Source: Methanomassiliicoccaceae archaeon (GTDB lineage: Archaea > Thermoplasmatota > Thermoplasmata > Methanomassiliicoccales > Methanomassiliicoccaceae). Taken from it: DNA of 64,000 bases. Under the pieces are notes generated by a model, which worked only from the letters and a program-made list of their open reading frames with translations, ran no database searches and was not told the DNA's origin. Location: the NCBI GenBank assembly GCA_963728405.1, contig CAVSJV010000007.1:288001-352000 (forward strand), given 5' to 3'. A program made the position numbers and the translations under genes. Below, in pieces: positions 30,771-56,019 of this stretch (positions are counted from its first letter, which is position 1; each line of letters starts with the position of its first letter).

Positions 30771-32405
30771 TCAGAGGTCGTGCTTGTTGGCCTGCCTCTG
30801 CTTGTATTCCAGCGCCGCTTTGACCAGTCCAACGTGCAGGGGAGACGGCTTGCGAGGCCGTGACTTGAATTCTGGGTGGAACTGCGAGGCCACAAAATAG
30901 GGATGTCCCCTCAGCTCGCCGATCTCCATCTTGATGCCGTCCTCCGATTTACCGGTAAAGATCCATCCGCAACCTTCCAGCTGCTCGATGAACTCTGGAT
31001 TGACTTCAAAACGGTGGCGATGGCGTTCCATTATCTCCGAAGCGCCATAGAGCTCCTTGGCCATCGAGCCGTCCTTGATCAGGACCTTCTGCGCTCCCAG
31101 ACGCATGGAGCCGCCCTTGCTGGTCACGCCCTTTTGCTCCGGCAACAGATCTACCACTGGATACTTAGTCTGGGGATCCAGCTCGGTGGTATGTGCGCCC
31201 TCCAAGCCGAGAACATCCCTGGCGATCTCGATAGTGGCGATCTGGAAGCCTAGACAGACTCCCAGGAAAGGTATGTTCTTCTCCCGGGCGTGCTTGGCGG
31301 TCATGATCTTACCGTCGATGCCCCTGCTTCCGAACCCGCCGGGTATAAGGATGGCATCCACGCAGGCCAGCTCCTTGTTGACGCCGTCCTGCTCTACCTT
31401 CTCTGAGTCAAAGAAGCGGCACTCGACCTTGGTCCCCAGCTCGGCGCCGGCATGATGGAACGCTTCCAGATGTGAAAGATAAGAATCGGCTAGGTGAGTG
31501 TACTTGCCTACGATGGCGATGCGGACGGTGTTGGCCGGGTACAGTATTCGGTCCAGATACTCCCTCCACTGGCTGAGGTCCTTGGTCTGCGTATCGATCC
31601 CCAGTCGTTTCAGGATGTAGTCGGTGAGGCCCTGTTCTTCGAGGATGATCGGTACCTCGTAGATCGATTTGGCATCGGGGGCGGAGACGACCGCTTCCAG
31701 CGGCACGTCGCAGAACAGCGATATCTTGCGCTTGATGGAATACTCCAAGGTCTCGCAAGCCCTTGCCACGATCACATCCGGCTGGATACCGATGGCCCGC
31801 AGCTCCTTAACGGAGTGCTGGGTCGGCTTGGTCTTCTGCTCGCCGACAGTTCCCAGCATGGGGACCAATGTCGTGTGAACGAAGATGCAGTTCTGGCCGC
31901 GCCCCATCTCAGTGTTCATCTGGCGGACCGCCTCCAGGAAGGGCATGGACTCGATGTCGCCGACAGTCCCGCCAAGCTCAACGATGCATACGTCGCATTC
32001 GGACCGCTCGGCCACGGTCATAATGCGATGCTTGATCTCATTGGTTATGTGGGGGATGATCTGCACGGTCTTGCCGAGATACTCGCCCACCCTCTCCTTA
32101 TCGATGACCGCGCGGTACACCTTGCCCGTGGTGATGTTATGATCGCTGCTGAGGCTTATGTCTAGGAATCTTTCATAGTTGCCGAGGTCCAGATCGACCT
32201 CGCCGCCATCGTCCAGTACGAACACCTCGCCGTGCTCGAACGGGTTCATGGTTCCAGCGTCAATGTTGAGGTATGGATCGATCTTGATAGCGGTGACCTT
32301 GAGACCACGTGATTTCAGAAGGCGGCCGATCGAGGATGCTGTGATCCCCTTTCCTAAGCCAGAAATGACCCCACCAGTGACGAAAATATATTTCATCGTC
32401 TCCAT
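30771..32405 (-). CDS. pyrG: CTP synthase
   Basis: [40 protein letters not shown]. Confidence 0.98.
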
Positions 32406-32641
32406 GGGATTCGACAATAAGCCTGTTAGGTATTTAGCGTTTCCTGAGGTAATCGAAAAGAGACTCTGGATATATAAATTTCCAAAATGTTATTCAAAAT
32501 AGCTTAAGCTGATTAATAGAAAAATGAAAGAAATGACAGTGACGTTCGATGCAATTTGTTTTGGTGCTTAAAATCCTACCTGGAATTGGGCAGGAAGAGG
32601 CAACGATTGCCTTTCCTTGCTTCTACTTTGTTAATTACGTT

Positions 32642-34101
32642 AGGAGGTGATCCATCTGCAGGTTCCCCTACAGATACCTTGTGACGACTTAACCTACCTT
32701 GTCTAATCTAAGGTTCGTCCCCAATGAGAGACATCTTCACCAAAACAAACTCGGTTGGTTTGACGGGCAGTGTGTGCAAGAGACAGTGACATATTCACCG
32801 TTCGCTGATAACAAACGATTACTACGGATTCCAGTGTCACGAGGCTGGGTTGCAAACCTCGATCTGGACTGAGATGGACTTTAAGGGATTGGCTTCACCT
32901 TTCGGTGTTGCATCCCATTGTATCCCCATTGACGCGCGCGTGTTGCCCAGGGGATTCGGGCTGTACTCACCTAACGTAGCCCGCACTTTCATCCTGTTAC
33001 CAAGGCAATCTGCATATATGTGCGCCCACTCCGGAGAAGACTAGTAAATAATACATGAGGGTCTTGCCTGTTACCTGATTTAACAGGTCACCTCACGGCA
33101 CAGGCTGACGTCGGCCATGCAACTCCTCTCAGCGTGTCAGGTAAGCCCTTCAGACTGACCTTCATTCTGCTGTCGCTCCTGGTGAGGTTCACGGTGTAGA
33201 ATCTAATTGAACCGCACGCGTCACCCGTTGTAGTGTCTCCCCGCCAATTCCTTTAAGTTTCGGCCTTGCGACTATACTTCCCAGGTAGCACACTCTTCGG
33301 CTTCCCTTCAGCACGAAACCTCTCGAGGAGGTACTGATGTTTAGTGTGCAGTGTTTACTGCTAGGACTACAGGGGTATCTAATCCCTTTTGCGCCCCTAG
33401 CCTTCATCCCTCACTGTCAGAACTGTTCTCGTAAGATGCCTTCGCTATTGTTAGTCCGTCCAGGATTAACACATTTTACCGCTACTCCAGAACGTACTTC
33501 TTACGTCTCCCAGTCTCTAGCTCCGCAGTACTTCCTGCCCGCCCGACACTTGAGACATGCCAGATTTCACAAGAGACTTAGAAGACAAGCTACGGATGTT
33601 TTAGACCCAATAAAAATGGCTGCGACTTGGACCGCGGGTATTACCGCGGCGGCTGGCACTCGTCTTACCCAGTCCTTATTCGCCAATTTTTTAGACTTGG
33701 CAAAAGCTTCACAAAGTGCAAGCACTCTGGCTCAATACTGTCACGCTTTCGCGCATTGCGAAGTATTCCCAACTGCTGCACCCCGTAGGGCTGGGAATAG
33801 TGTCTCAGATTCCCTCTCAGGGCCTCTCCGCTAAGAGCCCTTACGGATCACGGGCTGGTGGGCCATTACCCCGCCAACAACCTAATCCGCCGCAGCCCCA
33901 TCCTTAGGCACGAGTTTGAGAGATAAATCATTCCAGGTTAGATTCTATCAGGTATTATCCTCAGTTTCCCGAGGTTATCCCTGACCTAAGGGTAGGTTAG
34001 CTACGTGTTACTGAGCAGTTCGCCGAGACCTTACCGTCTCTCGACTCGCATGTCTTAATCGTATTCCAATAGCGGTGGCCGCCGGCAGGATCAACCGGAA
34101 T
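32642..34101 (-). rRNA. rrs: 16S rRNA gene, unlinked (no tRNA-Ala/23S follows), atypical internal sequence
   Basis: 5' ATTCCGGTTGATCCTGCCGG, GTGCCAGCCGCCGCGGTAA, GGATTAGATACCC, AAACTTAAAGGAATTG, 3' GGATCACCTCCT. Confidence 0.97.
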
Positions 34102-34405
34102 CCATTCCTTAAGCAACAGAAGTTGCCGTCAGGACACACTTATAGGTTGGCAGGATTCTAAGTTTCACCAGCGTAACCACGCTGTGATATTATTCCTATT
34201 TCTTGCATTAATTGGGTTACATTGCATCGAACTGTCAGAACCAAGAGAGCACGCGTAGATGATTACGCGGAGATCTTAGTTCTCCATGTCATTATCCGAA
34301 GCTTTTGATACGATCGCATCATAGCCGGCCTTTCGACCGTCGCTCTGGACCGTCCCATTGCTTCAGTTGCTGTCTAACGCAGCTTTCCCTCAAATACAGA
34401 TGTTG

Positions 34406-34623
34406 TATATAAGCATTTGTATGCTCGGGTTCTGCGTCATGCACAGATGTGTATGTTATTCTTCCACATCCGGGCCCTTCCACCTAAAACCGAAGTCATA
34501 TATAAGGGTTTTCATACTTGATGAAAGCCCTTTTGACCCCGATTACAGTGTATGGGAGATATGTGTTCTTAGTGATTCCATATCTCACAGCTAATTCACA
34601 CTTAAAACGCTATCATATATAAA
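34406..34623 (-). promoter_or_regulatory. three tandem TATA boxes upstream of the 16S gene
   Basis: CTTATATA (34406-34413), CTTATATA (34499-34506), TTTATATA (34616-34623) on minus strand, each with an A-rich BRE-like 5' side. Confidence 0.6.
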
Positions 34624-34933
34624 CTTTACTGTAGTCCTGCGGCGCCTGTAGATTCTTAGACCGCAGATAAGAGGCACTGCATTGTTTTCCGGCCCGGTTA
34701 CGCCGGCTTGAGCAGTTACAGAGTTATCGATCATATTGCGCTTAAACCTTTGAGATATCTGAAGAGATATGCCTTTCCTACGGCCGAGATTATATCATAA
34801 TATATAGTTGCGGAGGGGAACCGATTCATTGTATAATGGGGATCGTTCGATGAATGGCGGCCCCTACTATCTATGGCCTCAGAAAGTAGCCACAAAAAAG
34901 TTTAAAAGGGGCGTATCATTGTGTGCCATCAAA

Positions 34934-35020
34934 GCGGAGGTGGCCCAGCTCGGTAAGGCGCAGGATTGCTAATCCTGTGACCTCACGGTCTCGGGGGTTC
35001 AAATCCCCCCCTTCGCGCCA
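34934..35020 (+). tRNA. tRNA-Ser(GCT) with encoded CCA; island integration site
   Basis: GCGGAGG/CCTTCGC acceptor, CAGGA-TTGCTAA-TCCTG, long variable arm, GGGGG-TTCAAAT-CCCCC. Confidence 0.95.
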
Positions 35021-36053
35021 CTATACATATCCACTCACCTCGAATCTGGATTCAATTTTGCGGTTTTTTAGCATCTGGGTAGCTCATTTTGCCATGAGAG
35101 AGCTGCTGAGCTTCCCTGTTAGCGACCTCTTGCTGCTTGCGGCAGTACATACGTTTCTGTGGTCTTCGTCGTCGCGTAGCCCACATGACCGAAACGGAAT
35201 TCAGGCCCATATTCTGATCTATGTTCATCTGCCCGAAAGTCCTCCGGCAATCCGTAGGTCGAACTTGATGCTTGTTTCGCTCTCGACGAGCCGTTTTAGC
35301 TTCTCTATGCCATCGGTCGAGAAGTGGCCGCCCTCCTGGTCCATCGTGGCTGGAAAGGGGGCCTGGTTCATCGGACATTTCTTCTCGATGTGTTTCTTCC
35401 TCGCTCGGAGATGTCTGGTTAATAGTTCGTGGGCCTGTTGGTCTGATGGCGACCATCCTGGGCTCCCCATAGCTACCCTCGCCCTTAAACGTGCTCGACA
35501 TAGATGACCCAATCCTGGGTATCCAGGTCGCCCACATTACTGAGGCGCAGACTCCTTAAACCGCAGGCTTAGAACATGGGGCTAGGACCAGGTTATCGAA
35601 TATGCTTTTATCCTAGTCCAGTCCGTTCCCTCTACAGTCTTGGCCTCCGCAATGATTCGGTGGAAAATTCCCCTGCCTTCATCGGTGGCAACATTCCAGG
35701 TGCTCTTCTTCGGCCTTGCTTCGGGGATATCTTACCTTGCACTGCTGGACCGCTCGTATTTCCGACGAACTGAAGCACGACTATCCAGACACTGTAATGT
35801 TGTGGCTGATGGCCGTTCCTTTCAGACCCTCTGGCTTTTGTTGAGAGCCGATATATTGCAGAATATCCTCGGCGGATATCTTCTGCGGGTCGTAGGAAGA
35901 AATTTTGCCATTGCCGTACAGCGCGTTCTCAAATCCTTTTCCATCCGTCGGTATCTCCTTCGAACCTCTACCATCGTGGATTCGGCGTACACAGTTCCCG
36001 ATCACAGCGAGGTATTTCTTCGCCTTCTGGGTCAAGAAGGGATATCGGACCAT
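35021..36053 (-). pseudogene. full-length tyrosine recombinase/integrase, many frameshifts
   Basis: Joined frames: MVRYPFL..YAEST..; LRLSNVGDLD..VEHV/KGEGSYGEPR; CRRTFGQ..GHATTKTTE..; ends KIESRFEVSGYV-TAG abutting the tRNA CCA. Confidence 0.85.
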
Positions 36054-55898: not shown

Positions 55899-55971
55899 AG
55901 CCCCGTAGTGTAGTGGTCAATCATGCCGGCCTTTGGAGCCAGCGACGGCAGTTCGAATCTGCCCGGGGCTA
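55899..55971 (+). tRNA. tRNA-Gln(TTG)
   Basis: AGCCCCG/CGGGGCT acceptor, CTTTGGA loop, GGCAG-TTCGAAT-CTGCC; one C-A mismatch in anticodon stem. Confidence 0.9.
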
Positions 55972-56019
55972 CTTCCTATTCTTCTAGGATCGCCATTATT
56001 GCACTCTCAGGGTCCTCGT

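Follow-up and report, generated by a model that had tools for sequence, protein, structure and literature searches.

Genes for 16S rRNA that combine the sequence of two organisms have been met in several settings. Classic PCR or assembly chimeras of 16S rRNA carry one or two breakpoints, which lie in sequence shared by the two parents. Natural chimeric 16S genes have also reportedly been found, with experiments in Thermus and cases in Enterobacter. In the portion available to us of a review of natural and experimental 16S transfer (PMC3661144), an identity of 80.9% is given as the lowest at which a foreign 16S still worked in E. coli. For MAGs, the accessible part of another paper (PMC13617573) describes six Asgard MAG 16S genes that group with Euryarchaeota, DPANN or TACK lineages instead of with their MAGs, a misplacement that is blamed on wrong binning. 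In the main texts of the literature searched we found no description of the exact pattern reported below, a 16S mosaic of the kind that polishing could make, and the accessible part of PMC8012365 holds no direct description of polishing-made 16S mosaics either.

The gene that we describe here, the 16S rRNA gene of a methanogen MAG, resembles each of these cases in part. With PCR or assembly chimeras it has in common that it stems from two parents, that breakpoints lie near conserved stretches and that long-range helices are broken, but it switches between its parents at least eight times, mostly without shared sequence, and its host remnants are found only at length differences. As with the Asgard genes, to the extent that they are covered in the accessible part of PMC13617573, a MAG from a public set carries a 16S gene of another phylum (DPANN being among the wrong lineages there as well), and the consequence is the same, i.e., exclusion from 16S reference sets; those cases, however, concern whole genes or contigs that were wrongly binned, whereas ours is a fine-scale mosaic at the right place in a host contig. 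As in natural 16S transfer and mosaicism, part of the 16S derives from another organism, yet natural transfer, as the available portion of PMC3661144 presents it, takes place between related lineages that usually have several rRNA operons, whereas the parents here belong to different phyla, are ~72-76% identical, and meet in a single-copy gene whose cross-junction helices are broken. A sequence-only reading of the locus had pointed to a 16S gene that does not match its host. We confirm that observation, and conclude that the organism itself most likely does not have this mismatch.

The gene occupies positions 32642-34101 on the minus strand of the 64-kb window (the whole stretch of DNA that was analysed), and is a full-length archaeal SSU rRNA that spans model positions 1-1478 of Rfam RF01959 with 1168.4 bits, where the gathering cut-off for this family is 50 bits. 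It is the one SSU match in the whole genome (G000; 2,731,983 bases in 18 contigs, with a completeness of 93.75% and a contamination of 4.07%), and it sits ~320 kb into a contig (C7) of 369,816 nt that has the same G+C content, 57%, as the remainder of the genome. The assembly is free of N and its longest contigs reach up to 516 kb, which fits a long-read assembly that was subsequently polished. The genome encodes McrA, hence the organism is a methanogen, and its 16S and 23S genes lie on separate contigs. Downstream of the 16S gene lies the host gene pyrG for CTP synthase (30771-32417, minus strand; Pfam CTP_synth_N, 429.6 bits, and GATase, 124.4 bits), and the stretch on this side aligned to a same-genus locus (L022) at 81.9% identity over 1169 nt. 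The host gene upstream is tRNA-Ser(GCT) (34934-35020, plus strand; found by ARAGORN and scoring 55.9 bits in Rfam), which is part of a 129-nt block that was 89.9-92.2% identical to same-genus loci at the equal relative place. Both flanks are host sequence in host gene order, and are ordinary for a sister species. The sole other tRNA of the window, tRNA-Gln(TTG) at 55899-55972, was unremarkable.

A search for SSU genes covered 41 genomes from the genus, family, and order of the host, one of them being G000 itself, and 31 gave a match. The 25 full-length 16S genes of the relatives scored 1414.1-1536.2 bits, leaving the G000 gene as the lowest of the 26 full-length matches. Over the whole gene, BLAST gave 75.4-75.8% identity to four same-genus 16S genes (L019-L022), which are 98.7-99.9% identical among themselves, and 72.7-75.5% identity to the remaining full-length relatives. 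The mismatch set in abruptly: in 100-column windows compared with the genus, the first window of the gene showed 97-98% identity, after which the values dropped to 65-81%, with 79-92% in the flanks and ~72% for the core of the gene. The near-identity over the whole gene that would mark a 16S of the host genus (genomes G001, G004, G008, and G009) was not found, only nt 1-77 being host-type. The 23S gene scored 2799 bits and was 97% identical to four same-genus 23S genes. Its 50 private differences were evenly scattered (variance/mean of 0.95 per 50 nt) and the comparison with the same-genus 23S genes yielded no foreign patches, which means that any cross-mapping touched the 16S gene only. Separately, we observed that the 16S gene of another same-genus genome (L026, from G007; 1414 bits and 94.2-95.3% identity to L019-L022) is host-like save for ~90 mismatch-dense nt at gene positions 741-830, beside N's and a 17-nt gap, a patch that probably reflects a further error of assembly or scaffolding among the 16S genes of this genus.

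The relatives of the gene body were found in a different part of the archaea. A scan of one genome per species with a pattern that contained the h28 variant of the gene yielded 63 stretches, which were titled Woesearchaeota (18), Nanoarchaeota/Nanoarchaeia (16), Pacearchaeota (15), or Iainarchaeum (1) in 50 cases, as "archaeon" only in 9, and as bacteria in 4. The last four (L044, L056, L078, and L081; two titled "bacterium," one Planctomycetota, and one Patescibacteria) carry a DPANN-type 16S and, going by that gene, are likely mis-binned or mislabelled records. Over gene nt 78-1460, the best BLAST matches were a Pacearchaeota MAG (L082) at 90.7%, L053 at 90.4%, and L040 at 90.2%; dozens more DPANN 16S genes aligned at 84-90% identity, with most alignments beginning at nt 78 or 79. 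The resemblance of the core to Pacearchaeota and Woesearchaeota 16S, which had previously been suggested, was thus borne out both by the titles of these 50 of 63 stretches and by identities of up to 90.7%, compared to ~72% for the host genus. We also compared the body with what a blend of DPANN populations would look like, and obtained a nearest-neighbour identity of 89.5% and a mean best-per-window identity of 92.4%, values similar to those of real DPANN genes left out in turn (L095, for example, with 89.7% and 93.1%). By this measure, the body seems to behave like one real DPANN 16S rather than a community blend, the leave-one-out signal pointing neither way. Among JGI contigs, a first exact 32-mer had 0 matches and a second was present in 5 contigs, each of them 84.0-90.4% identical, and neither these contigs nor the species-representative genomes contained a donor closer than ~90%. 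As an aside on this lineage, the 23S match in one Pacearchaeota MAG (L059:2541-6102; 2020.6 bits) measures 3562 nt for a model of 2987 positions, which suggests that it holds inserts or introns.

The strings and coordinates on which the sequence-only reading had based its case were all present in the window. The h28 variant GGGGAGAC lies at 33235-33242 and its partner GTCTCTT at 32778-32784, with central pairs A-U, G-C, and A-U where the host has G-C, A-U, and G-C (864/1321, 865/1320, and 866/1319). The h35 variant is formed by GCCTGT at 33100-33105 and ACAGGC at 33066-33071, and the gene further carries a T at 32769 inside ACACACTGCCCGTC and a C at 32683 inside GTCGTCACAAGG. The latter two are the equivalents of C1400 and A1499, which we take to be near-universal positions of the decoding region that are changed in Pacearchaeota/Woesearchaeota-type 16S. 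Among 68 DPANN-type loci (L037-L104), ACACACTGCCCGTC occurred in 38 and its version with the usual C in 3, and GTCGTCACAAGG occurred in 52 versus 0 with the alternative, both strings being found in 0 of 29 host-order loci; these 68 loci had been picked by the 5' strand of h28, so that the counts are biased and h28 itself is not independent. All three signatures of the Pacearchaeota/Woesearchaeota type, namely, the h28 pairing GAGAC/GTCTC, the U at the C1400-equivalent, and the C at the A1499-equivalent, are present in the G000 body, which together with its identity of at most 90.7% places it in this group. By this comparison, the altered "universal" motifs are natural traits of the donor lineage, and the compensation is real covariation that was inherited from a real DPANN rRNA. 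The earlier argument from compensation, that the core stems from a real rRNA, held in the wider set of lineage-covarying pairs as well, with donor letters on both sides in 71 of 92 (see below). One string had been over-read: GGTGACGCGTGCGGTTCAATTAGATT had been taken as Pacearchaeota/Woesearchaeota-like, but its part CGTGCGGTTCAATT is also the host lineage's own sequence. Donor-type sequence did not run from end to end. The gene differs from Pacearchaeota/Woesearchaeota 16S in that it lacks their 5' 80 nt, including a longer hairpin near nt 63, and in that it has three host-derived hairpin tips; nt 1-77 and these three islands are host sequence.

To locate the switches along the gene, we aligned it with 22 references, i.e., 6 host-family and 16 DPANN genes, whose host and DPANN consensus differed in 400 columns. 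Up to nt 77, beginning at nt -3, the 24 columns of this kind were all host-state, and the 376 informative columns after nt 82 divided into 324 donor-state, 40 host-state, and 12 of neither state, in accord with the earlier description of a body not of the host lineage with host-like ends. Exact 15-mers were host-only over nt 1-76, and they were DPANN-only at 998 positions, shared at 256, and of neither type at 113, with one 17-nt host-only block inside the body and none other. The host-type 5' segment (gene nt 1-77; 34025-34101, minus strand) thus combines host-state columns with 15-mers that occur only in host-order loci and with 97-98% identity to same-genus 16S; a host-like 5' part had indeed been noted before, though it extends over 77-84 nt and not over ~100. 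It is followed by the Pacearchaeota/Woesearchaeota-type (DPANN) body (gene nt 85-1419; 32683-34017, minus strand), which is supported by BLAST, column states, and 15-mers alike and is broken by three host islands. We had also considered host-specific strings elsewhere in the body, and these resolved into the three islands plus sequence that is common to both lineages.

In the alignment, the first island (gene nt 383-392; 33710-33719, minus strand) reads GCACTTTGTG and forms a hairpin tip between donor-type stem halves; 11 of the 29 loci from the host order contain its string, as opposed to none of the 68 loci of DPANN type, and environmental DPANN contigs have other letters at 33710-33719. The second island (gene nt 1058-1083; 33019-33044, minus strand), likewise placed by alignment, runs on into host-like GGCGCACA; where the host has 17 nt that are missing from each of the 16 aligned DPANN genes, it has kept 15. 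One extra T lies near each of its edges (nt 1051 and 1084), and its string TCTTCTCCGGAG was present in 7 of these 29 host-order loci and, again, in 0 of the 68 of DPANN type. The third island (gene nt 1367-1383; 32719-32735, minus strand) is an exact 17-nt host string with host-only 15-mers at the tip of the long 3' helix, a 17-mer that 3 of the 29 host-order loci share and that is absent from the DPANN-type ones (0 of 68). The 3' end of the gene (gene nt 1420-1460; 32642-32682, minus strand) is identical in the host genus and some DPANN (L059, L044, and L061). A host-like 3' end had been reported as well, but these 41 nt can be assigned to neither lineage.

The junctions between these pieces share little sequence. 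The 5' crossover lies within GGCGAAC (nt 78-84; 34018-34024), 7 nt that are common to host and donor and that are the sole shared letters between the host-specific AAGGTCTC and the donor T at nt 85; it could span 22 shared nt only if the host itself had a T at nt 85. Because the last donor-state column is nt 1419 and host and some DPANN are identical from there on, the 3' crossover must fall somewhere in the last 41 nt. Overall, the junctions share 0-7 nt, with 7 nt at the 5' junction and 0 to a few at the islands, and the 3' junction alone lies in 41 shared nt, whereas a natural recombinant would be expected to have its crossovers in shared stretches. What the state of the sequence does follow is the length difference between the parents: differences of at least 12 nt are in the host state, while those of 1-3 nt are all in the donor state. 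Accordingly, the mosaic lacks the 12 nt that the donor has in excess at nt 63 and retains 15 of the 17 nt that the host has in excess at nt 1061. Foreign letters thus occupy the co-linear columns and reference letters the large length differences, which is the distribution expected of a polishing chimera. The mosaic also carries 1-2 nt indels of its own that are absent from all 22 references, two of them beside the second island (nt 1051 and 1084), and substitutions in 12 columns that are invariant among the DPANN genes (n = 16), with the host letter in 8.

Leaving out the mosaic, we used the 22 references to predict a consensus structure, and retained 391 pairs that were canonical in 90% or more of these sequences. 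Of these pairs, 16 were non-canonical and 7 gapped in the mosaic, compared to 0-1 in the host sequences (n = 6) and 0-9 in DPANN (n = 16). Breakage was pronounced where the host 5' piece pairs with the body, with 6 of 25 pairs broken (25/481, 26/480, 28/478, 35/374, 37/372, and 38/371), versus 9 of 338 ungapped pairs within the body. The 92 lineage-covarying pairs, in which host and donor differ on both sides, were donor/donor in 71 cases, host/host in 4, mixed in 12, and contained a letter of neither lineage in 5; 10 of the 12 mixed host/donor pairs were broken. The unpaired helices that had been pointed out before were found again, with an A-C at 442/465 in the GAGTG...TACCC helix and a C-C at 766/787 in the CATCAGTACCTC/GAGGTTTCGTG hairpin. 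With the curated Rfam structure, the 5' third of the mosaic scored 401.9 bits with 46 non-canonical marks, compared to 475.5 bits and 10 marks for L082 and 528.4 bits and 10 marks for L019, and over the whole gene the mosaic reached 1168 bits, six DPANN relatives 1284.2-1321.8 bits, and the 25 host relatives 1414-1536 bits. Both parents thus fit the rRNA model better than the mosaic does. Structure was therefore not kept, as it should be in a natural recombinant, given the broken pairs and the 46 marks versus 10 and 10.

From the sequence evidence, we consider it very likely that the mosaic is an artefact of assembly or polishing, of whichever of the two kinds, and probable that it is specifically the product of a consensus or polishing step (or of a comparable reference-guided correction). 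The chimera proposed in the sequence-only reading, by polishing or by assembly, finds support in the islands at host insertions, the near-homology-free junctions, the indels at the junctions, and the broken helices across them. In such a scenario, the draft contig would have carried the methanogen's own 16S gene in its usual slot between pyrG and tRNA-Ser, and reads of a more abundant, co-occurring archaeon of the Pacearchaeota/Woesearchaeota type would have aligned to this conserved gene and out-voted the host reads. Where the two genes have stretches of equal length or differ by at most 3 nt, donor letters would have overwritten the host letters; at differences of at least 12 nt, the foreign alignments would have ended and the host letters would have stayed. 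There would be three such stop sites, namely, near nt 63, where the donor has the longer hairpin, near nt 1061, where a hairpin of the host is extended by 17 nt, and at the tip of the 3' helix, which is longer in the host. Column-by-column voting predicts stray host letters that break donor helices as well as small indels at the seams, as we found. A difficulty for this scenario is that variable regions were overwritten in full although the two genes are only ~72% identical, which would need several polishing rounds or a permissive long-read aligner. Also counting against it are the 23S gene, which is free of foreign patches, the body that resembles one real DPANN 16S, and the lack, in the genome collection and the JGI contigs, of a donor closer than ~90% that would show the native sequence without the islands. 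The two-lineage composition, islands, junctions, helices, and normal 23S gene and flanks were observed directly, whereas we infer that a software step was at work and that the source sample contained the donor.

Public sequencing runs were compared with the locus as well. For positions 31300-35500, 14 studies of metagenomes (from sediment, groundwater, wetland, landfill, and other sources) contributed 24 runs, each of which contained 0.05-0.11 of the sampled words, and none contained half or more. When four of these runs (X1, X5, X6, and X9) were mapped at 85% likeness, neither flank was covered at all, and short contigs matched the 16S gene in their thousands. In run X1, for example, 3298 contigs covered the gene, of which 368 were at least 99% alike, 677 were 95-99%, 1367 were 90-95%, and 886 were below 90%. 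The longest environmental pieces over the gene measured 100-244 nt and were roughly 86-98% alike. All that this cover indicates is that archaeal 16S pieces of a similar kind abound in habitats of this sort; it is silent on the join and on the source sample.

The main competitor of a polishing product is a path through the assembly graph (de Bruijn or hybrid) that departed from the host 16S at a shared word, entered the edges of a more abundant DPANN 16S and came back, with gap-filling accounting for the islands, a course of events that we regard as possible but clearly less likely. Genes for 16S rRNA are classic tangles in metagenome graphs, which speaks for a mis-path here too. A 3' crossover in the 41 nt common to host and some DPANN would suit it, as would a 5' crossover in the 22-nt shared stretch, if the host had a T at nt 85, and the six foreign-clustering 16S genes of Asgard MAGs in the accessible part of PMC13617573 offer a precedent. 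The internal islands, however, are bounded by 0 to a few shared nt, where no k-mer graph can switch, and it is this lack of shared words at the island edges that makes the mis-path the lesser alternative. Lone host letters that break donor helices (342/363, 442/465, 517-518/580-581, and 1057/1080) look like per-column voting instead, and the contigs are long and without N. That the locus or contig was simply a mis-binned DPANN piece has next to no probability: the contamination estimate of 4.07% and the four DPANN-type 16S genes in bacteria-titled records would allow for mis-binning, but the flanks are host sequence in host gene order and C7 has 57% G+C like the genome. Divergence in place, of a pseudogene or a hyper-evolving host 16S, had been our initial working idea, in view of mismatches to the genus that are spread nearly evenly (28.4% in the body, variance/mean of 1.29 per 20 nt), few indels (8 insertions and 15 deletions), and G>A and C>T as the commonest changes. 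The donor match contradicts it: the body is 90.7% identical to DPANN and tiled by exact DPANN 15-mers, and 71 of the 92 covarying pairs are donor/donor. Since chance cannot arrive at the sequence of another phylum, we reject this idea and give it practically no weight.

A real recombinant would require that the single 16S gene was mostly replaced by that of a co-living DPANN archaeon through several conversion tracts, with the host hairpins kept and the ribosomes functional, and this strikes us as very improbable. The gene is uninterrupted in the syntenic slot of a 370-kb contig, and its 324 donor-state columns with intact donor covariation indicate a core from a real rRNA. Natural chimeric 16S genes, as mentioned above, are reportedly known, and Woesearchaeota are said to co-occur, or perhaps even to function, with methanogens, so that it is plausible for the sample to have contained them too. 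A foreign 16S of down to 80.9% identity supports E. coli according to the available portion of PMC3661144, but the G000 gene, at 75.8% to the host genus, falls below this lowest working identity. A natural origin would moreover need at least eight crossovers between genes that are ~72-76% identical, mostly without shared sequence. It would leave 6 of the 25 pairs that join the 5' piece to the body broken and a model fit below both parents, in a damaged gene that would be single-copy, essential, and combined with an ordinary host 23S. The islands, finally, track the length differences of the alignment and follow no evident functional logic.

As a matter of data quality, the mosaic does have practical consequences. 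The genome serves as the one-per-species representative and its sole 16S would classify as DPANN, such that a wrong link between 16S and genome could enter reference sets and mislead amplicon studies. The signs seen here, i.e., host remnants that are confined to length differences, a model score lower than that of either parent, and helices that are broken across junctions, may help to detect such artefacts. Were the mosaic real after all, it would represent a cross-phylum hybrid small ribosomal subunit in a Thermoplasmata-type methanogen and the most extreme natural rRNA transfer known. Almost certainly, the cell has an ordinary 16S, and the biological weight of the mosaic is low.
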